Assembly: GCA_963757765.1 (NCBI GenBank)
Contig: CAVWSL010000015.1
Span: forward strand, 1,392,553 to 1,456,552
Length of the DNA stretch: 64,000 bases
Direction of reading: 5' to 3'
DNA from: an uncultured Chloroflexia bacterium
Lineage (GTDB): Bacteria > Chloroflexota > Limnocylindria > Limnocylindrales > CSP1-4
This document shows positions 4,993 to 41,342 of the stretch, piece after piece. Position 1 is the stretch's first letter, and the number at the start of each line of letters is the position of its first letter. Below the pieces are notes generated by a model. That model had not been told where the DNA came from. It searched no databases and was given only the letters and a program-made list of their open reading frames with translations. Position numbers and translations under genes: made by a program.

Positions 4993-5755
4993 CGTCAGGC
5001 GATGCTCTGTCCCTCGACCTCCTTGGGCTTGTTGATCCAGGCGGGGCCGGGCAAGGCTGGCGGCTCCGGCGGCTTGTTGACGAACCGCTCGGGGTGCGCA
5101 GCGTAGGCGGCGTCCAGGACCAGGGCACGTTCCGCCCGGACCGTGGCCGCGGTGCCGAAGGGGACCGACGCGGGTGTGTGCTAGCCGATCCCCGAATGGC
5201 GGTGATGGTGGTCGCAGGTGTCCAGGAACCCGCCTGCGAACTGCCGCGCATATTCGGTCGAACCGAAGCTGCCGGGGAAGTCCGGGCCGTACTTGATGGT
5301 CTTGAAGGCCGCCTCGGAGTAGGCGTTGTCATTGGACACGTGGGGCCGGGAGTGGGTCCGACCGATGCCCAGGTCCGCGAGCAGCTGGGATGCGGGCTTG
5401 GAGGTCATCGCGCTGCCCCGGTCGGCATGGATGACCAGACGCCCGGGCTCCGCCGGACGGTGGCTGGCCACCACCCGTTCGATCCAGTCACAGACCACCT
5501 CGGCACGCTCACCCTCCTTGACCATCCAGCCGGGGCTGTAGCGGCTGAAGATGTCGAGCATCACGAAAGCGTGTCGAGGACGGTCGCCCGCTCATCGGGC
5601 GAGAGCGCACGGGCCGGAGTCCGGCGGGGGGCGGGCGGACCGAGGCGCGGGCCGAGAAGGCCCCGGTAGTGGGTCGCGCGAGCGACATCGAACGCGGCGC
5701 ACGCGGCGCTGGTGCCCACCACGGGCGCCAGCTCGCTGACCGCAGAGGCGATCAA
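4993..5755 (-). pseudogene. IS3-family transposase OrfB (DDE/rve) remnant
   Basis: Contains the SNDN.YSEA.FKT.KY and HHHRHSGIG-x-HTPA motifs typical of IS3-family OrfB. It is interrupted by an in-frame TAG at 5181 and a frame break near 5561-5564. Confidence 0.55.
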
Positions 5756-6108
5756 CGCCCGTCCTTCGGATCGGCGCTCCCGAGGGAGAGCTCCCGCAAG
5801 AGCGCCGAGACGTTTCCCTGGACGGCGATCACCTTCTCGGCCCGCTCCAGCCGCGTGCGGAGCCGCTCCACCTGTCCGCGCAGGCGCTCGTTCTCGGCCT
5901 CCAGCGGATCGGCGGCCGGGCCCCGGGACGCCGAGGGCCTGAGCCTAGGCCGCCGGAGCCGGCGACACAGTGGCTGCTGTAGAGGCCGTCGCGGCGGAGC
6001 AGCGCACCCGGGCGCCGGGCGTCGTGCAGCGCTCGAGCTCATCGAGGATGGCCGCCTTTTAGGCCGCCGTGAACACTCCGCGCTTGGGTCGCTCGACTAC
6101 CTCGGGGT
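5752..6108 (-). pseudogene. IS3-family transposase OrfA remnant
   Basis: C-terminal coiled coil/leucine zipper (ENERLRGQVERLRTRLERAEK) typical of IS3 OrfA. The upstream HTH part is in another frame and contains an in-frame TAA (…GVFTAA*KAAILDE…). Confidence 0.5.
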
Positions 6109-6877
6109 CCGGGTCCTGGTCCATCGGCCAAGGATGCGTCGGCCGAAACTGGTGCTGGTGAGATGGCCATGGGAAGTCTCCTTCCCGCCCTCGGTCAGTG
6201 ATCAGTGGAGGTCGGGTGTCTCACCGGAGCCTGGCAGCGAGGGGAACGGCTCCGGGAGCCATCCGCAGAGCGACCGGGGCAACGTCTGGGCCCACCGGCT
6301 TTACGACGACATCTGGTCAGGCGCGGATCGTTAGGGCCCAATGACCCGCAGCTCCTCGGCCGCGACCGGGACTGACCAGCCGAGCCGGAGAGCATGAATC
6401 GCGAGCAACAAAGTCGACTGTACTCGTTGATGTGCATCGAAGGACTGGCCGCGAGAGTGGCCCGCGCATTCGGGCTTCGACAACCCGAACGTCGCGGGGG
6501 AGACTCTTGTTTGTCAACGACGTGCCGGGTGACTACAGCCAGGACCCGCCGCCTTCACCATCAGGGCTATCCTTGACGGCTCCGGGTTTGCGCCCGAAAT
6601 TTGCCACCGGACCGACTGCCCCGGCGTCACCCGCCAAGGCTAGCAGTGGCTTGGCGAGGATCTCGTCGCTGCTGCGCGTTGGACGGGAACCCACCGAGCC
6701 CTGAACCACTGCCCCGTCGAGGCATGGACCGAGATCGCTGGGACGAAACGCCGTGGAAAGATGCCCAGTCCGATAGCCTCGCAGCGCGACAGCGCCGTGG
6801 CACTTCGTCGTCCGTCTGTGCAAGGCATTGGGGGCTGCTCGGCATTCCCGTCAAGCCAGACCGGCCCGAACAAACGA

Positions 6878-33561: not shown

Positions 33562-35292
33562 CTACCGGAGCAGCACCCCGAAGGTGAGCTTCGGCGCTCC
33601 CTCCTTGCCGGACAGCGTGAGCTTGGTACCGTCCGTGGACGACTTCCAGGTCGTCACCTGGGCCATCGCGGACAGGAAGTTGGCCTCGACCGCGGTCGCC
33701 AGGTCGCCGCACAGCTTCTGGGTCATGGACAGCGTGCCGATCGCGATGGTGCTGCCGTCCAGCTTGTAGCTGGCGGTGTACGTATTGCAGCCTGCGAATC
33801 CGCTGATGTTGCCCGATGCGAATGCCGCGGTCGGGGTCTCGGGCACCACCGGCACATCGATGACGTCGCCGCTGCCATCGTCATAGCGAACGAGGATCCA
33901 GCTGGTCGCGTTCAACGCGTCGCTGGGTGACGCGGTCGGCTTCGGTGTCGGCTTCGGTGTCGGCTTCGCGGTCGGCTTCGGTGTCGGCTTCGCGGTCGGC
34001 TTCGCGGTCGGCTTGGGTGTCGGCTTCGGCGTCGGCTTGGGGGTTGGGCTTGGCGTCGGCTCGGGACCCCGCGAGACCTTGTAGTCCACGGCAGTCCCCC
34101 GCTGCACGATGACTCCAGCCTTGGGGTCGGTGCTCAGGACATCCCCGGCCGGGACCTTGGCATCGTACTTGCGGGTCTTCGCACCGGCGGTCAGGCCTGC
34201 TGCGCCGATCTGGACCAGGGCGTCAGCCTCTGCGTCACCAACGACGTTCGGCACGGCGACCGTGGCGGGCGTCGGCTTCGCGGTGGGCTTGGCAGTCGGC
34301 GGCGGTGTCGGTGTCGGTGTCGGTGTCGGCGGCGGTGTCGGTGTCGGTGTGGGCGGCGCGCTGGGGCTCGGCAGGGGCACCGCGTTGGGGTCCGGCACGA
34401 GCGACATGATGGCGACACCGGTCGCGTCGTAGAGCGTGAGGCCGGACGCATCGAGCGTCCATGTCGTGGCGCCTTCCAGACCGGCCAGGAACTCGGCCTC
34501 CTGGCTCGCGATCTCTGGTGTGGGACATGCGGCACGTGTCGTGCCGAGTGGCCCGATGGCGATGGCGTTCCCCGCGACCGCGTACTGCCCGAACAGGTCG
34601 TTGCAGCCGGTGGTACCTGTCAGCACATCGTCCGCCCGGAACAGCAGGGTCAAGGCGCTGCTGCCGAGCGGCGTCAGGAGTGTGCCGGTGCCATCGGTGA
34701 TGCCAGTGACCAACCAGCCGCCGATGATGGGCACCCGCACCGTGGCGGTGTAGACCAGGACCGGACGACCTGCGGCATCCACGAGCGACAGTGTCGAGCC
34801 CACCAGGGTGAAGCTGGTGACCGAGGCGATGGCTGCGAGATAGGCCGTCTCGAACGCAGCCAGCCCGGCGGTACAGCTCGCCGGTGGATAGGTGACGCCC
34901 ACCTGGCCGAAGGTGATGACATCGCCTGCAGTCGCGTATTGCGCGAAGTAATCGTCGCAGCCGTCGTTACCGACCGCGAGACCGTCGTGGAGCACCAGGG
35001 TGACCACGGGCGCGTCGATCAGCACAGCGGCCAGCCCGACGGACGTCGGGACATCGAGGAGCCAGCGCGTCCCCGTTAGGGTCGGCGCGGCCGGCAGCGC
35101 CGAGGGACCCGGTGCGGCGGAGGAGCTGGGCACCGCCGACGGAGCCGGTGACTGGGCGACGGTCGTCCCAGCCAGGAGCATCGACATCGAGGCCGCGAGC
35201 AGCGCGGCAAGCCTGGGACGGCGTCCCGGACGGTAGCGGCGGAGCACGTCGGCTCCCTGATCGGCCGGGATGGCCGCGGATACGAGCGACAT
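33562..35292 (-). CDS. Secreted META(HslJ-like)x3 / PASTA domain protein with PT- and PKPT-rich linkers
   Basis: Signal peptide (…[25 protein letters not shown]). Three META/DUF306-like modules carry GC(D/N)..F(A/G)QYA..G..I.(F/I)G.(V/L)…C…FL.A pattern (…[19 protein letters not shown]…, …[19 protein letters not shown]…, …[19 protein letters not shown]…). One PASTA-like module sits between PT/PKP linkers (…[63 protein letters not shown]). An alternative start is GTG 35247. Confidence 0.7.
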
Positions 35293-35449
35293 GGCTGACT
35301 CCCGGAACGTGACGACATTCGGATGTCGCGGCGCGAGCACCGCAGCAGAGACTATCGCGCGATCTGGCCGAGACCGTGTCCGGGTGTTGGCCGAAGTGTG
35401 CCTGGCACGCGCGGAGCGCCCCGTTCGGGCGTCATCATCCGGGTGTCGA

Positions 35450-35752
35450 CTACCGGAAACGGAAGCTCAGCCGCATCCGACGACGTGACTGCTGCGCGGA
35501 CAGCTCGGGTTCGGCCACCGCGACGTGCTTGTTGCGCCACGGGTCATGCGCATAGGTCACGTACAGGTCAGCGCCACGCCAGGACTCGTTCACGGGATAC
35601 CAGTCGTGGGCCGCGGCTTCCTGGGCGTCCTCTTCGAACCGTTCGCGGATCTGCGACGGATAGAGGCCTTCGTACACCTGGGTTCGCGGCGGGAACATGC
35701 TCCGCACGATGCCAGTCGATCGCGCGGTCGGGATAGGGCCCCAAAGAGCCAT
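35450..35752 (-). CDS. Hypothetical small protein (100 aa)
   Basis: This is the 3' end of the long antisense ORF 35450-36976. Only this part lies outside the DAHP synthase gene, and its third-position GC is moderate. It is co-directional with the downstream META/PASTA gene. Confidence 0.25.
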
Positions 35753-35863
35753 GCCGGGATGGGACCCCTCACTGATTGCGGCCCACCGTTGGCCCTTCGA
35801 GTAGCCTGTCGCGGCACAGGACGTCCCGGCGGCGGGCACGCGGAGCGATAGCACGAGGGTCGG

Positions 35864-36907
35864 ATGCTGGTGGCGATGTCGGTCGGAGCGACCGAACGGG
35901 AGATCGAGGAGGTCAAGGCGCACATCGCCTCGGAAGGTCTGACCGCACACGAAAGCAGGGGGATGGAGCGCGTCGTCATCGGCGTGGTGGGCGACGTCGC
36001 CGGGCGCAAGGAACGGGTGATGGGTCGGCTGTCGGCGCTGCCCGGCGTGGAATCGGTGACGCCCATCAGTCGCCCCTTCAAGCTCGCTTCTCGGGAGTTC
36101 CACCCCAGTGACACCATCGTCCGGGTACTGGGCACCGCGATCGGCGACGGGTCCCTGACACTCATGGCGGGGCCCTGCTCGGTGGAGAGCCGCGATCAGC
36201 TGCTGGAGACCGCGGATGCTGTGGTCGCGGCGGGCGCGACGGTGCTGCGCGGTGGCGCCTTCAAGCCCCGCACGAGCCCCTATTCGTTCCAGGGGCTGGG
36301 CCTCGAGGGCCTGCGATACCTCGCCGAGGCACGTGAGCGAACCGGACTGCCGGTCATCACCGAGGTCATGGAGCCGACGGACGTGCCCGTGGTCGCGGAG
36401 CACGCTGACATCCTCCAGGTCGGCACCCGCAACATGCAGAACTTCCCGCTGCTCACCGCGGTCGGCCGCGCCGGACGCCCCGTGATGCTCAAGCGGGGCC
36501 TCGCCGCGACCCTCGAGGAGTGGCTCATGTCGGCCGAGTACATCCTCTCGTCCGGCAACCCCGATGTCATCCTGTGCGAGCGGGGCATCCGGACGTTCGA
36601 TACCTGGACCCGCAACACGCTGGACCTGACCGCGGTGCCGATGCTCCACCACGTCACGCATCTGCCGGTCATCGTCGATCCCTCGCACGCGACCGGCAAG
36701 CGCTGGCTCGTGCGACCGATGGCCCTGGCGGGCGTCGCATCCGGAGCGGACGGCATCATGATGGAGGTCCACCCGCGGCCCGACGAGGCCTGGTCCGACG
36801 GCGAGCAGTCCCTGGACCTGGAGCAGATGCGGGCCCTGCTGCCGATGCTTCGGACGGTGCATGAGCAGGTGCGTGGCCTGGCTCGGGATCCTCTGGTGAG
36901 CCGCTGA
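35864..36907 (+). CDS. 3-deoxy-7-phosphoheptulonate (DAHP) synthase, type I-beta with N-terminal ferredoxin-like regulatory domain
   Basis: Core DAHPS/KDO8PS motifs …[10 protein letters not shown]…, …[17 protein letters not shown]…, …[12 protein letters not shown]…. The N-terminal ~80-aa domain is of the type seen in Thermotoga-type DAHPS. Confidence 0.88.
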
Positions 36908-36908
36908 C

Positions 36909-37865
36909 TCAGGCCGTGGTCGCGATGCGATCCCGCGGGGGCGTCGGTCGCTCCGATGTCGGCGTCCGGTGGGCACGCATGACCTCCACGGCGGTCAGCC
37001 ATGCCGTCGTCGCCTCGGGGCCCTGACCCGTCAGCGGTCCATCCGGGCCAAGACCGTCTCGGCAGGCACCGGTCGCCGGGTCGGCGATCGGCAGACCCCC
37101 GTCGTTGGCACCCAGGAACCATCCGTGGATGGCTTCCATGCCGGCGCGGAAACGGGGCGTACCTGTGGCGCGCCAGGCGGCGTCAGCCGCGAGCAACAGC
37201 GAGGTGGCGTCGGTCGGGCGCTGGTCGGATGTCGCCCGGGTACCGCCGCGCGGCCAGCCACCGGCATCTCCGACCAAGCTCAGATGTCCGTCCTCCGCGG
37301 TCTGGATCGTCAGCAGCCACTCCACGGCCCGGACACCCATCCGGAGCATCCGGGGATAGCCCAGTCGGGCCCCCCCGACGATGAGGGCGTGTGCCGGCAG
37401 CCCGTGCTCGCCGGTGAGCACGGGCTCTGGCCAGGGCCAGTCGAACGTCACGTCGCGGATCTCGAACGACTGACGGAGCCCGTTGCCGACGTCCTGGTAG
37501 ATCCGTGATGTCTCACCGATCGAACCACCTCGTTCGGCCGCATCACATGCCAGCAGCAGCGCCGCCCGTGGTCGCAGACCCGAGAGCTGGCTCGCGGTCG
37601 GCAGCGCCCGCTCGAAGAGGGCGAGGGCCTCGGTACGCTGTGGGCCATCCGGGCCGTCCGCGACGACGGTGCCCAGGGCCAGCAGCGCTCGGCCATTGGT
37701 GTCCTCGGAACCTGGCGCGTCCAGCCATACTCCGTCCGCGGACCTGAGGCTCCGGAATCGTCCCGCGGCCGCGTCGTATGCCTCGGCGAGGAATGCGAGG
37801 CCGCGGACGACGCTCGCCTCCACGGCCGGCCAGCCGAGCACGGGCGCCTGGAGCAGGTCCACCAT
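36909..37865 (-). CDS. Hypothetical protein, possibly (alpha/alpha)6-barrel glycosidase-like; N-terminus uncertain
   Basis: The first ATG downstream of the GT4 stop is 37865. High third-position GC continues upstream to 38156 with no start codon outside the GT4 gene. The protein may be longer (overlapping) or fused to the upstream GT4 via a frameshift. Confidence 0.4.
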
Positions 37866-38001
37866 CAGGCCCCGGCAGATGTCATCCGTCGCATAGCTAT
37901 GCGACTGGCCCGGGGGCGTGCCCGGTGGGTGGCCCTGGAGGCCGACGCCATCGCCCAGCTCGTCGAGGTGGAGTCGGATCGCCGCGGGCAGCGCGGGTGC
38001 C

Positions 38002-39309
38002 TCAGGCACTGCGGACCGCGATCCGTGACGGTGCGCTCCGGGCCGGGTGAGCGGCAGCTTCGGCGAACCGCTCCGCGTACGCGCCACCGACCTGCGACCA
38101 GACCATGCTCCGGCCGTGGTCATATGCCAACCGGGACATGACCGCGCGCCGCTCATCGTCGAGCAGCAGCTCGACCACGGCCGCGGCGAGCGTGGCCGGG
38201 TCGGCGGCGGGGACGATCACGCCTCGACCGTCGGCGAGCATCTCAGCGGCGTGCGGCGATGGTGTCGAGACGACCGGTCGGCCGGCAGCCATGGCGTACG
38301 GCAGGGTGCCCGAGCCGATCCGGTCGGACGGCGGCGGGGTCGTGACCAGGATGTCGGCCGCCTCCAGCCATCGGCCGAGCTCCAGCCGTCCGACGAACTT
38401 GTCCACGAAGGTGACGTGCTCGGCGAGCTTGAGCTTCCTGACCATGGCGACGAGCCGGGTCCGGTAGGCGTCCCCATCGCTGAGGAGCAGGTCCGGATGG
38501 GTAGCGCCGAGGATGACATAGCGCGTCGAGGGCACCGCCCTGATGATCGCCGGCAGGGCCTCGAGCATCGTCTCGTACCCCTTGCTCGGTCCCAGCAGGC
38601 CGAATCCCAGGAGCACCTTGCGACCCGCCACGCCCACGGAAGGCTTGACGGTCTCGGCCTCCGTGAACGGCAGGTCGGGGACGCCCCGCGGGATGATGTG
38701 GACCCGAGCGGGATCGGCGCCGTAGATCTCCGTGACCGCATCGGCGGCGGCCCGCGACATGACCACGGTCGCGTGGGTCTGCCGCAGCAGCCCCTGCATG
38801 ACCCCCAACTGGGTTTCGCTCGGCTGGCCATGCAGAGTGTGCAACGTCGTCACGACGGGCAGGCTCAGCATGCCCACGAAGTCGAGCACGTGCGAGTCGT
38901 CCTCGCCTCCCCAGATACCGGTGTCGTGCTGGACGGACACCACGCCGGCACCACACCGGTTCACCCAGCGTGCCGCCTCGATGTGGTCCGCGCGCACGTC
39001 CCGCTGGATGACGCGATGGACCTCGGGTGGGTTCTTCTCCAGCTGACCCGGGGGCTGGAGCGCCACGATCTCGCACCGACCCACGGCCCGGACCAGGTCG
39101 GTCGTGAACGTGGCGATGCCGCAGTGTCGCGGGGCGTAGGTCGAGACGATGGCCGTCCGAAGCAATCGACGCTCTCCTGTCTGCCGCGCTCGGCGCGGCG
39201 TCAGGGCCCGACGCTCGGTCTGGGTTCGCTCCCCATGACCGTCGTGCGTCCCTGCGCTGATGCAGCCAGGACCCGGAGGTATCGCTGCCGCACGGGATCC
39301 GCCACGCAT
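38002..39309 (-). CDS. Glycosyltransferase family 4 (GT-B, 'glycosyl transferases group 1')
   Basis: C-terminal GT4 block …VILGATHPDL…LAEHVTFVDKFV…EAADILVTTP…GSGTLPYAMAAGRPVVSTP… The start is probably internal (near RLLRTAIVSTYAPRHCGIATFT). Confidence 0.8.
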   Translation of the reverse strand: MRGGSRAAAIPPGPGCISAGTHDGHGERTQTERRALTPRRARQTGERRLLRTAIVSTYAPRHCGIATFTTDLVRAVGRCEIVALQPPGQLEKNPPEVHRVIQRDVRADHIEAARWVNRCGAGVVSVQHDTGIWGGEDDSHVLDFVGMLSLPVVTTLHTLHGQPSETQLGVMQGLLRQTHATVVMSRAAADAVTEIYGADPARVHIIPRGVPDLPFTEAETVKPSVGVAGRKVLLGFGLLGPSKGYETMLEALPAIIRAVPSTRYVILGATHPDLLLSDGDAYRTRLVAMVRKLKLAEHVTFVDKFVGRLELGRWLEAADILVTTPPPSDRIGSGTLPYAMAAGRPVVSTPSPHAAEMLADGRGVIVPAADPATLAAAVVELLLDDERRAVMSRLAYDHGRSMVWSQVGGAYAERFAEAAAHPARSAPSRIAVRSA

Positions 39310-39578
39310 CGACGCTGTGCGTCGCCGTGGACCGCGGATACATGACCGTGCGCAGCCCCCACGGTGCGCCCGATCCCGATCCCTGTCAAACGCTGACCCG
39401 GATCTGCTCGTGCGGCCCCGGGCCGCTGGTCGTCATGGCCCTGCACGGCGGAGCGAGGCGACAGGCGACGGGATGCGCACCTCGAGTCGCTGTACGGCAC
39501 CCAGGATCCCGCCGGGGGAGGTGGTCTTCCGGTACGCTGCTGCCCTCCGCATCAACAAGCAGAAGGTTGGGTCGGGTC

Positions 39579-41342
39579 ATGGTTGACACACCAAAGACGA
39601 AGTCGGGCGCCAAGGGGTCGACGAAGGCTGCCGCCAAACCAGCTGCGACGAAGCCAGCGGCCACCGCCGCGAGTACGGCCAAGGCCGCAGGCAAGCCTGC
39701 CGCGACGAAGCAGGCTGCCGCCCAGCCAGTTGCGACGAAGCAGGCGGCGCCGCGACGTCCAGCGCCCAGGCCCACCGCTGCCAAGCCGGCCGCTGCCAAG
39801 CCGGCCGCTGCGAACGCGGCGCCCACGCCGGCCCACCGGTTCGTCGCGGTCCCGACCGTGCAGGTCGAGCCGATCGCCAGCCTCGTGCCGAGTCCGCGCG
39901 AGATGGACCAGGCCTCGGAGTACTCGGCTGCCTGGGCACCGGCGCCACCGTCGGGTGATGTCTGGACCGCGCGACCGTGGGTCCCGACCTCGGTTCGGCT
40001 GGATGAGGGCAAGGCGGTCCGGAAGCGGGTGCCCCGCACCAGCCATGCGGGCTTCGAGCTGGCCCCTGGGCGCGACCCCATCGCGATCCTGGAGGCGCAG
40101 GAGACGATCCGCCTCCAGGACCTGGTACCGCTCCGGCACCAGCGCATGTCCGAGTCGCCGTTCGCCTACTACCGCGGCACGCCAGCGGTGATGGCGTTCG
40201 ACCTCGCCTCGACGCCGCGCACGGACATCATCGTCCAGGCGAGCGGCGACGCCCACCTGTCGAATTTCGGCATCTTCGCGTCGCCCGAGCGGACGCTGGT
40301 GTTCGACGCGAACGACTTCGACGAGACCCTCCCGGCGCCCTGGGAGTGGGATGTCAAGCGGCTGGCGACCAGCATCGTCGTGGCCGGACGAGCGAATGGC
40401 TTCACAGCCGCGGCGAACCGGGCTGCCACCATGGCGACCGTCCGGGCCTACCGCCAGTGGATGACTCGCTATGCGTCGATGCGTCTCCTCGACGTGTGGT
40501 ATTCCGCGATCACCGAGGCAGACATCCGGGCGGCCGCGGAGACGGCCGCCGGCAGCATCGAGATCAAGGACATGGCCCGGGCCCGGACCCGGCTCGACAG
40601 CCTGTTCTCCAAGGCCCGCTCCAAGGATTCGCTCAGCGCGGCCGCTTCCCTGACGACGGTCGTCGAGGGGCGCCGGATGTTCATCGACCAGCCGCCGACG
40701 GTCCAGCACATCACGCTGGCGGATGGTCCCCAGGTGCTCGCCGAGGTCTTCGAGGCATACCGCGCCACGATGGCCGAGAGTCGGCGAGAGTTCCTGGAGC
40801 GCTACCGGTTCGGTGACTTCGCGCTCAAGGTGGTGGGGGTCGGCAGCGTCGGCACCGCCTGCTTCGTGTGCGTGCTCGAGGGTCGCGACGAGGATGATCC
40901 GCTCATCCTCCAGGCCAAGGAGGCGAACGCGTCGGTCCTGGAGGAGTTCGCCGGCGCCAGCGCGTTCCCGCAGCACGGCCAGCGGGTCGTGGTCGGGCAA
41001 CGACTGATGCAGGCGACCCCGGACATCTTCCTGGGATGGGCCAAGGGACCTGCGCGCGACTTCTACTTCCGGCAGCTGTGGGATATGAAGGGGTCGGTCG
41101 ACACCACCAAGCTGCTGCCGCCCGGACTCGCCTTCTATGGCGGCATCTGCGCCTGGGCGCTGGCCCGGGCGCACGCCCGCAGCGGCGACTCGGTCGCCAT
41201 CGCCTCGTACGCTGGAACCAGCGACACCCTCGATGGTGCCATCGCCGATTTCGCCGAGTCATACGCCGACCTCAACGAGCGGGACTACCAGGACTACCTC
41301 GCCGCCATCAAGGCTGGCAGGGTCTCGGTCCCGGCGGCCTGA
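39579..41342 (+). CDS. DUF2252-family protein with N-terminal histone-H1-like Ala/Lys/Pro-rich tail
   Basis: Met 39579 is preceded by GAAGG. Residues 1-90 are AKP repeats (KTKSGAKGSTKAAAKPAATKPAATAASTAKAAGKPAATKQAAAQPVATKQAAPRRPAPRPTAAKPAAAKPAAANAAP). The remainder matches the DUF2252 pattern (…GDAHLSNFGIFASPERTLVFDANDFDETLPAPWEWDVKRLATS…). Confidence 0.75.
   Translation: MVDTPKTKSGAKGSTKAAAKPAATKPAATAASTAKAAGKPAATKQAAAQPVATKQAAPRRPAPRPTAAKPAAAKPAAANAAPTPAHRFVAVPTVQVEPIASLVPSPREMDQASEYSAAWAPAPPSGDVWTARPWVPTSVRLDEGKAVRKRVPRTSHAGFELAPGRDPIAILEAQETIRLQDLVPLRHQRMSESPFAYYRGTPAVMAFDLASTPRTDIIVQASGDAHLSNFGIFASPERTLVFDANDFDETLPAPWEWDVKRLATSIVVAGRANGFTAAANRAATMATVRAYRQWMTRYASMRLLDVWYSAITEADIRAAAETAAGSIEIKDMARARTRLDSLFSKARSKDSLSAAASLTTVVEGRRMFIDQPPTVQHITLADGPQVLAEVFEAYRATMAESRREFLERYRFGDFALKVVGVGSVGTACFVCVLEGRDEDDPLILQAKEANASVLEEFAGASAFPQHGQRVVVGQRLMQATPDIFLGWAKGPARDFYFRQLWDMKGSVDTTKLLPPGLAFYGGICAWALARAHARSGDSVAIASYAGTSDTLDGAIADFAESYADLNERDYQDYLAAIKAGRVSVPAA

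Follow-up and report, generated by a model that had tools for sequence, protein, structure and literature searches.

The KPAA regions of AlgP and PhaF from Pseudomonas are reported to show lysine-dependent binding to DNA, to polyphosphate or polyhydroxyalkanoate (PHA) granules and to specific mRNAs (PMC9239181; PMC12818456), and for PAKKA tails repeated evolution on unrelated DNA-binding proteins has been proposed. The domain family DUF2252 is placed in the PKinase clan of Pfam, with its N- and C-lobes flipped in sequence order (PMC9758233); a 2026 bioRxiv survey reports the same lobe swap and notes that structure aligners which preserve sequence order miss the kinase resemblance. No experimentally characterized DUF2252 member was found in the literature that we searched, and the family is large (12,456 cluster representatives at 50% identity, E ≤ 1e-3). 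Here, we describe a gene at positions 39579-41342 of a 64,000-nucleotide stretch of contig CAVWSL010000015.1 from an uncultured soil Chloroflexia bacterium (the whole stretch is referred to below as the window), in which a lysine-rich tail precedes a DUF2252 domain. Both parts are already known, the first as a KPAA/PAKKA-type tail and the second as a lobe-swapped kinase-like domain, but their combination is not mentioned in the literature that we found naming DUF2252. We propose that the tail is a lineage-specific accessory electrostatic tether that keeps a kinase-like domain, acidic and probably active, close to polyanions. We consider this reading plausible but unproven and would put its probability at roughly 0.45.

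The best explanation of the overall anatomy is a cytoplasmic two-part protein consisting of a disordered lysine-rich tail (amino acids, aa, 1 to about 99) and a DUF2252 part (aa ~100-587). The principal features are as follows.

39579-41342, + strand: complete coding sequence of 587 aa plus stop, with an N-terminal disordered tail and then the DUF2252 domain (open reading frame listing and sequence; identical public protein P0001).
39579-39842, + strand: lysine-rich A/K/P/T low-complexity tail, aa 1-88, with five KPAA units; predicted disorder continues to about aa 99, nucleotide 39875 (composition, AAG frame, lysine enrichment, model confidence, AT skew).
39775-39811, + strand: perfect tandem repeat, 15 nt × 2.5, encoding (A)AKPA repeats within the tail (Tandem Repeats Finder).
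40110-41303, + strand: DUF2252 (PF10009) domain, aa 178-575 (hmmscan).

The first-pass annotation of this DNA, made from the letters alone, had proposed a DUF2252 protein fused to an Ala-Lys-Pro repeat tail, and on both counts we agree. The Pfam-A hmmscan match to PF10009 covers aa 178-575 and profile positions 1-391 of 392, with E = 8e-134 and a score of 447 bits against a gathering cut-off of 22.3. The fusion is in frame from the ATG at 39579 to the stop codon at 41340-41342; the AAG codons of the tail are distributed 11/0/0 over the three frames, and the public protein P0001 (587 aa, 100% identity to the window protein) has the identical start. (L-numbers below denote DUF2252 loci in related genomes and P-numbers denote homologous proteins or cluster representatives.) A signal peptide or membrane anchor was ruled out by inspection, as aa 1-105 contain no hydrophobic stretch.

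Residues 1-88 of the tail, MVDTPKTKSGAKGSTKAAAKPAATKPAATAASTAKAAGKPAATKQAAAQPVATKQAAPRRPAPRPTAAKPAAAKPAAANAAPTPAHRF, comprise 33 alanines, 13 prolines, 12 lysines, ten threonines, four arginines and one acidic residue, with alanine, lysine and proline together making up 66%. This segment has a pI of 12 and a net charge of +0.17 per residue, compared with a pI of 5.5 for the remainder of the protein. The tail is 12% lysine, against 2.5% in the domain and 1.45% in those open reading frames of the window with high GC content at the third codon position (GC3), which is an approximately eightfold enrichment of the tail over the local baseline (binomial P = 2e-8 for at least 12 lysines in 99 aa). 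Lysine outnumbers arginine in the tail (K:R = 12:4), but arginine predominates in the domain (12:41) and in the window baseline (about 1:6). Because mutation pressure at 70% GC favours arginine, this enrichment looks like selection for lysine in frame. The GC3 of the tail is 0.77 versus 0.90 for the domain, and the AT skew over the region is positive (0.34-0.38). In a full-length AlphaFold model built from close homologues only, with an overall predicted local distance difference test score (pLDDT) of 60.8, residues 1-99 have pLDDT values below 40, which is consistent with the predicted intrinsic disorder of this region.

The first ~90 residues had been annotated as AKP/TKPAA repeats of the HupB/histone H1 type. 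As a description of composition this stands: the tail belongs to the Ala/Lys/Pro-rich, predicted-disordered class and has five KPAA units together with TKPAA and TKQAA variants. The repetition is loose, however, with a single short perfect tandem repeat, and the assignment to HupB/H1 fits less well than one to the KPAA type, as the tail contains neither a KK pair nor a PAKKA motif. The orthologous tail in L001 contains a 51-nt unit repeated 3.7 times, in frame and with 97% matches. The best explanation of these sequence data is that the tail is held at the level of composition, with lysine kept over arginine, and not at the level of sequence, and that it changes rapidly by in-frame tandem duplication.

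Judged on motif content, the KPAA-repeat regions of AlgP and PhaF come closest among described types. Like those regions, the window tail is rich in alanine, lysine and proline, is predicted to be disordered, has single lysines every four to five residues in KPAA, KPVA or KTAAA-like units, and varies strongly in repeat number between relatives. It differs in being N-terminal, shorter and more dilute, with 12 lysines in 88 aa as against 22-30 KPAA units in P. aeruginosa and nine in P. putida PhaF. Furthermore, it is attached to a kinase-like enzyme in Chloroflexota, whereas the Pseudomonas regions are attached to a phasin or a helical DNA-binding domain, and no homology is implied. With the PAKKA tails of mycobacterial HupB/Hlp, Streptomyces HupS, M. 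smegmatis Ku and Deinococcus HU, and with the C-terminal domain of histone H1, it shares the form of a fast-evolving terminal K/A/P low-complexity extension that some free-living relatives have and others lack. It lacks the PAKKA and KK motifs of this class, its lysine content is 12-14% rather than the ~25-40% expected, and its partner is a kinase-like DUF2252 domain, with no DNA-binding domain detected in the Pfam scan. As the window comes from Chloroflexota and is not actinobacterial, the HupB analogy is a cross-phylum compositional comparison.

The following two features bear on whether the tail is translated.

39563-39578, + strand: conserved 16-nt block AAGGTTGGGTCGGGTC abutting the start codon; probably the site of translation initiation, with AAGG/GAGGG as a Shine-Dalgarno-like element (aligned DNA of the window, L001 and L081).
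39900-39902, + strand: alternative in-frame ATG (M108), which would yield 480 aa, the commonest length among homologues without a tail; we do not consider it the main start (homologue N-termini).

The first-pass annotation had allowed that the true start might lie downstream of the AKP region or that the tail might belong to another frame. On the first possibility, the AKP region would be untranslated, a 480-aa protein would start at ATG 39900 and the upstream open frame would be a by-product of high GC content. Most homologues are indeed 480-500 aa long, and their N-termini align at about residues 106-108, which is 11-14 aa ahead of the AW motif and coincides with M108. Open frames of ~100 codons are not rare at 70% GC, and here the frame is open from 39327, a further 84 codons upstream of ATG 39579. 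In addition, the AAGG element sits 12 nt from ATG 39579, a spacing that exceeds the typical one. Against this, in an alignment of the window, L001 and L081 (the proteins of the latter two being 88 and 76% identical to that of the window) the conserved block AAGGTTGGGTCGGGTC-ATG-GTTGACACACCAAAG includes the 16 upstream nucleotides and the first ~9 codons, and conservation is lost further 5'. The gene upstream differs in L081, where it encodes a DAHP synthase on the same strand. At the protein level the N-terminal peptide MVD(T/A)PK(T/A)K is common to P0001-P0004, and P0013 opens similarly with MVDSKDAP. The strict three-base periodicity of AAG seen in the window is repeated in the tails of L015 (11/0/0) and, nearly so, L001 (15/0/2); tail lengths among relatives differ by multiples of 3, including the 51-nt repeat of L001, and both other frames hold stop codons. 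No Shine-Dalgarno-like element precedes ATG 39900, and a start at this position would leave at least about 590 bp non-coding. Taken together, these several lines of sequence evidence favour translation of the tail from ATG 39579. We regard an untranslated tail as very improbable indeed, and the AAG periodicity also argues against a tail in a different frame.

The domain itself contains the following features.

39876-40109, + strand: aa 100-177, the folded beginning of the domain that the Pfam model does not cover (block-mean pLDDT 75-98).
39930-39983, + strand: clade motif AWAPxPPSGDVWTARPWV, aa 118-135, common to the close homologues listed.
40245-40325, + strand: putative catalytic core, the C-lobe-like half, with GDAHLSN (D224, H226, N229) and FDANDFDE (D243, N245, D246, D248, E249) (invariant columns).
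40827-40919, + strand: N-lobe-like half, placed after the catalytic half, with the glycine-rich loop K417-VVGVGSVGT and the invariant K447 on the third strand (invariant columns and model).

Conservation was assessed in alignments of 64 close homologues (A1), 102 sequences (A2) and 80 diverse sequences (A3, in which D125 corresponds to D224). In A1, residues D224, H226, N229, D243, N245, D246, D248, E249, G420/G422, K447, D502 and K504 are invariant, as are W129, R132, P133 and W134 of the AWAPxPPSGDVWTARPWV motif. Residues D224, H226, N229, D246, D248, E249 and K447 are invariant in A3 as well. In A2, N229 is invariant, D224, H226 and D246 and D248 are conserved at 90% or more, and E249 and K447 are invariant or at least 90% conserved. 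The protein thus has the D-x4-N signature of the kinase superfamily (D224...N229 in GDAHLSN) followed by a downstream metal-binding aspartate (D246/D248 in NDFDE), and the N-lobe elements, namely KVVGVGSVGT (417-426) between two strands, the K447 strand and then a helix, in the half that follows the catalytic one. We take the combination of D-x4-N and D-F-D/E to be of the APH/choline-kinase type. In the APH, choline-kinase, maltokinase and glucosamine-kinase group, the catalytic loop G-D-x-H-x-x-N precedes a metal-binding D-F-(D/E) motif. DUF2252 resembles this pattern but differs in its swapped lobe order, and the structural comparison scores are below the usual significance. The window protein keeps all of the residues invariant in the DUF2252 family, as well as the published lobe order (PMC9758233).

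Since conservation extends to the catalytic Asp/Asn pair, the metal-binding aspartate, the lysine and the glycine-rich loop, the DUF2252 domain is probably an active phosphotransferase. The label 'domain of unknown function' in the first-pass annotation consequently needs qualification: the domain is not without a recognized fold but is a PKinase-clan member with swapped lobes and invariant catalytic motifs. The first AlphaFold model, from close homologues, gave an uninformative Foldseek search, and the structure was rebuilt with diverse homologues. The second run (aa 100-587, using the broader alignment obtained after a profile search) reached a pLDDT of 92.5 and a predicted template modelling score (pTM) of 0.92. 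In this model residues 410-499 form a strand, the glycine loop, a strand, a third strand carrying K447, a helix and two further strands. The folded part is predicted to begin at about aa 100-106, ahead of the Pfam boundary at aa 178, so that aa 100-177 including AWAPxPPSGDVWTARPWV appear to be folded. Comparison with solved kinase structures gave weak fold matches to the APH/maltokinase/glucosamine-kinase group. Sequence searches of the Protein Data Bank (PDB) with the protein and with the 102-sequence profile gave no significant match, and the family has no solved structure.

We also considered a Rossmann-type GxGxxG reading of KVVGVGSVGT (40827-40856). Lactate dehydrogenase was the only PDB match, with E = 0.11, and the model shows strand-loop-strand and not strand-helix at this position, so this reading was rejected.

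We surveyed the distribution of such tails in the closest homologues by grouping these into 120 clusters at the 90% identity level and measuring the extension as the residues before the WTxRPW motif. Longer extensions are found in 26 of the 120 clusters, and basic low-complexity tails, the count of which the first-pass annotation had suggested, are strongly basic (net charge of +6 or more) in about eight (P0001, P0002, P0003, P0006, P0008, P0009, P0013 and P0080). In a rough neighbour-joining tree of the domain in close homologues the basic tails fall at no fewer than four distinct positions, with short and acidic forms in between. The best 80 loci in the species-representative genome collection are all in Chloroflexota metagenome-assembled genomes (MAGs), from uncultured Chloroflexia (MFD series), Candidatus Limnocylindrales and one Dormiibacterota, with a best identity of 88%. 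Within this set of 80 loci at species level, L001, L006, L015 and L021 have long K-rich tails, and L060 and L077 have weaker ones. Beyond the close relatives, three proteins from three deep lineages that are 39-46% identical to each other (P0131, P0203 and P0247) have K-rich N-termini of unrelated sequence, in some cases containing KK pairs. Across ~1.03 Mb of related DNA, K-rich A/P/T low-complexity segments are present in five of 81 DUF2252 genes compared with one of ~950 flanking genes (Fisher p = 1.5e-5). The tail is therefore a minority, lineage-specific feature that nevertheless recurs on DUF2252 sequences beyond expectation, and this recurrence, with the near-restriction of such segments to DUF2252 genes in ~1 Mb, fits a charge-based role.

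Some further observations were made on these loci. In L021 the K/T/P/R-rich tail (TAKPATSKPATSKPATTKPAT..., 5555-6262) and the DUF2252 domain (frame from ~6000) lie in different frames owing to a 1-nt frameshift; the switch is near the junction between FEAA and W and represents either a 1-nt assembly error or a pseudogene. Several relatives have two or three DUF2252 paralogues per genome (L043/L067/L078, all on OY970185.1; L006/L008; L015/L071), and within one genome the basic tail can be confined to one paralogue, for example L015 and not L071. Many tail-less Chloroflexota homologues (L009, L011, L013, L018, L066 and others) have a short conserved basic N-terminal patch, MTEPTKPVRRPRK..AAAYDAAW, and the long tails may be expansions of such a pre-existing short basic N-terminus.

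Several points weigh against a tether. In 94 of the 120 closest clusters (78%) no more than 45 residues precede WTxRPW and their net charge is near 0, and in four clusters the extension is acidic and Pro/Glu-rich, with a net charge of -7 or below. The enrichment test is biased, because the loci were retrieved with a tail-bearing query and because two of the five tail-bearing genes, L001 and L081, are orthologues. No nucleic-acid- or polyphosphate-related genes are conserved nearby in the 80-81 loci. The window tail has five KPAA units, loosely repeated, compared with the 9-25+ reported for AlgP/PhaF. The HupB tail of M. tuberculosis, a rough yardstick, has ~30% lysine and about +0.37 charges per residue, so that the +0.17 of the window tail is approximately half the HupB charge density. 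Finally, the known KPAA and PAKKA tails are carried by proteins that bind DNA, RNA or granules and not by enzymes lacking a known substrate.

Because 94 of the 120 clusters have no long extension and four sister clusters have acidic ones, the conserved feature may be a disordered spacer instead of positive charge. Fully stated, this alternative views the extension as a disordered spacer that is tolerated or weakly selected and has no role specific to polyanions: an A/P-rich sequence that grows and shrinks by replication slippage at 70% GC, whose charge drifts from basic to acidic, whose basic charge here is incidental and which may tune only solubility, half-life or translation initiation. The presence, length and charge sign of the extension do vary among close relatives, and the short, basic and acidic forms are interspersed on the tree; sequence conservation is limited to the extreme N-terminus, recent tandem duplications are visible, the GC3 of the tail is below that of the domain and there are no conserved functional neighbours. 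Slippage without selection on charge does not account as readily for an eightfold lysine enrichment under a GC bias towards arginine, for a K:R ratio that is the reverse of that in the remaining protein and in the window, for the same lysine bias in the unrelated tails of other DUF2252 lineages, or for the near-absence of such segments from the ~950 flanking genes. In our view such a spacer is the main alternative, though a somewhat unlikely one. The acidic sister group (P0021, P0022, P0027 and P0030, 525 aa each) has an extension comparable in length to the basic ones (~66 aa), which opens with a similar peptide, MDEP..., and has a net charge of -7 to -10.

As a mechanism for the electrostatic tether, we envisage that the tail would bind polyanions (DNA, RNA or polyphosphate) non-specifically through its charge and would thereby bring the catalytic domain, which is acidic (pI 5.5), to a higher local concentration at the nucleoid, at RNA or at polyphosphate granules. 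The tail would be dispensable for the core activity, because most homologues have no tail.

The opposite charges of the tail (pI 12) and the domain (pI 5.5) could also be taken to suggest a cis-regulatory tail, which would either fold back onto the acidic domain as an autoinhibitory or substrate-mimicking element or be phosphorylated on its threonines (ten of 88 aa) by the attached domain or by another kinase, switching its charge. The Thr-rich TKP and TKQ units and the intact catalytic motifs are in keeping with such a role. The DUF2252 motifs and the weak fold matches, on the other hand, resemble those of small-molecule kinases and do not point to protein phosphorylation; the low pLDDT of aa 1-99 in the full-length model gives no support for a docked tail, and the existence of acidic-tailed and tail-less relatives argues against an obligatory role in cis. 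We consider regulation in cis quite improbable.

A broader reading is that DUF2252 enzymes as a family act on or near a polyanion, such as a nucleic acid, polyphosphate or a nucleoid-associated protein, and that lysine-rich segments have been gained repeatedly and independently, improving access to the substrate. The repeated gains that can be cited for this are the tails of four or more sub-lineages of Chloroflexota and of three deep lineages, together with internal K-rich insertions elsewhere. The first-pass annotation had taken the fusion to suggest a nucleoid- or polyanion-associated role for this DUF. As a general pointer, the tail fails: 78% of the closest clusters have no long extension, sister lineages are acidic, and the overhang ahead of the conserved core has a median of 13 aa over the 140 representatives of 50%-identity clusters that could be used. 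A typical member thus has about 13 residues before the conserved core, whereas the window protein has about 100 extra disordered basic residues. A family-wide association with polyanions is, in our estimation, rather improbable.

The internal insertions are found in the distant homologues P0124, P0126, P0142, P0183 and P0252, in which K-rich low-complexity sequence (for example AKKEKADKHQKAPKKAERAAKKEEQAAK) occurs in a loop just before the conserved KARxRD helix. This loop is a second position in the family that gains basic low-complexity sequence. An internal basic patch throughout the family, as a general polyanion site, was considered and rejected, as the median net charge of the segment is about 0 to +2 and few clusters have K-rich insertions.

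The gene is arranged divergently with the following neighbour, which is listed for context only.

38002-39309, - strand: GT4-family glycosyltransferase (Pfam Glyco_trans_1_4, Glycos_transf_1 and Glyco_transf_4).

The divergent arrangement with a GT4 glycosyltransferase operon noted in the first-pass annotation is real according to Pfam and is kept in the closest relative, L001, but the adjacency is not conserved. A GT4 gene and the gene for a 415-aa protein lie near the DUF2252 gene in two of 80 related loci (L001 and L025), and L081 has the DAHP synthase gene upstream while retaining downstream synteny (DUF190, PCMT, ArsR, AHSA1 and MFS). Clustering of flanking open reading frames over 81 loci revealed no genuine neighbour family in more than ~25% of the loci; the larger clusters are the DUF2252 gene itself, its shadow open reading frames and one chained cluster of 59 loci, the representative of which has an enoyl-CoA hydratase domain. 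Other recurrent neighbours (LuxR/AAA, SulP and a PLDc_N/SHOCT protein) are not consistent across loci. An Rfam search and RNA folding of the 5' region indicated no riboswitch or leader (z-score 0.93), a promoter and terminator scan found nothing, and the NCBIfam and PADLOC scans gave no family match and hence no link to a defence system. The genomic context offers no pointer to function and no tie between the protein and the glycosyltransferase operon.

Two open reading frames that lie downstream of this GT4 gene, at 36909-38156 (- strand, 415 aa) and 35450-36976 (- strand, 508 aa), have no Pfam match; the former, which is the only one of the pair that was scanned against NCBIfam, has no match there either. 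The 415-aa frame accompanies the GT4 gene in both L001 and L025, and the two may form a conserved two-gene unit. The GT4 frame at 38002-39309 is probably over-extended at its 5' end, as its alignment to the L025 homologue begins at residue 45, and the GT4 match in L001 (4223-5523) is in three pieces, which suggests frameshifts in the L001 MAG assembly. The only other K-rich low-complexity segment of the window is a (PTPK/PTAK)n linker of ~70 aa at 33886-34098 (- strand), within the open reading frame at 33562-35340. The protein encoded by the latter (592 aa) has one PASTA and three META domains and matches the Pfam 'PT disordered repeat'; its L001 orthologue (3-1535, - strand) carries the linker repeat as well.

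With regard to the wider meaning of these results, the sequence of the tail offers a testable clue to the cellular location of an orphan kinase-like family, tempered by its absence in most members and by its modest charge density. Should the tail prove inert, the locus would document fast, slippage-driven evolution of a disordered region in high-GC Chloroflexota. Few clues in the sequence bear on where such an enzyme acts, and lysine-rich tails that recur within one family are among them; if the tail binds DNA, RNA or polyphosphate, the search for a substrate would be narrowed. The enzyme would then join the bacterial proteins with H1-like or KPAA-like tails, which so far are mainly structural or nucleic-acid-binding. 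If the family as a whole does act on or near polyanions, DUF2252 would represent a new class of lobe-swapped kinases tied to the nucleoid or to polyphosphate, and the tails would provide the first functional handle on a large orphan family.

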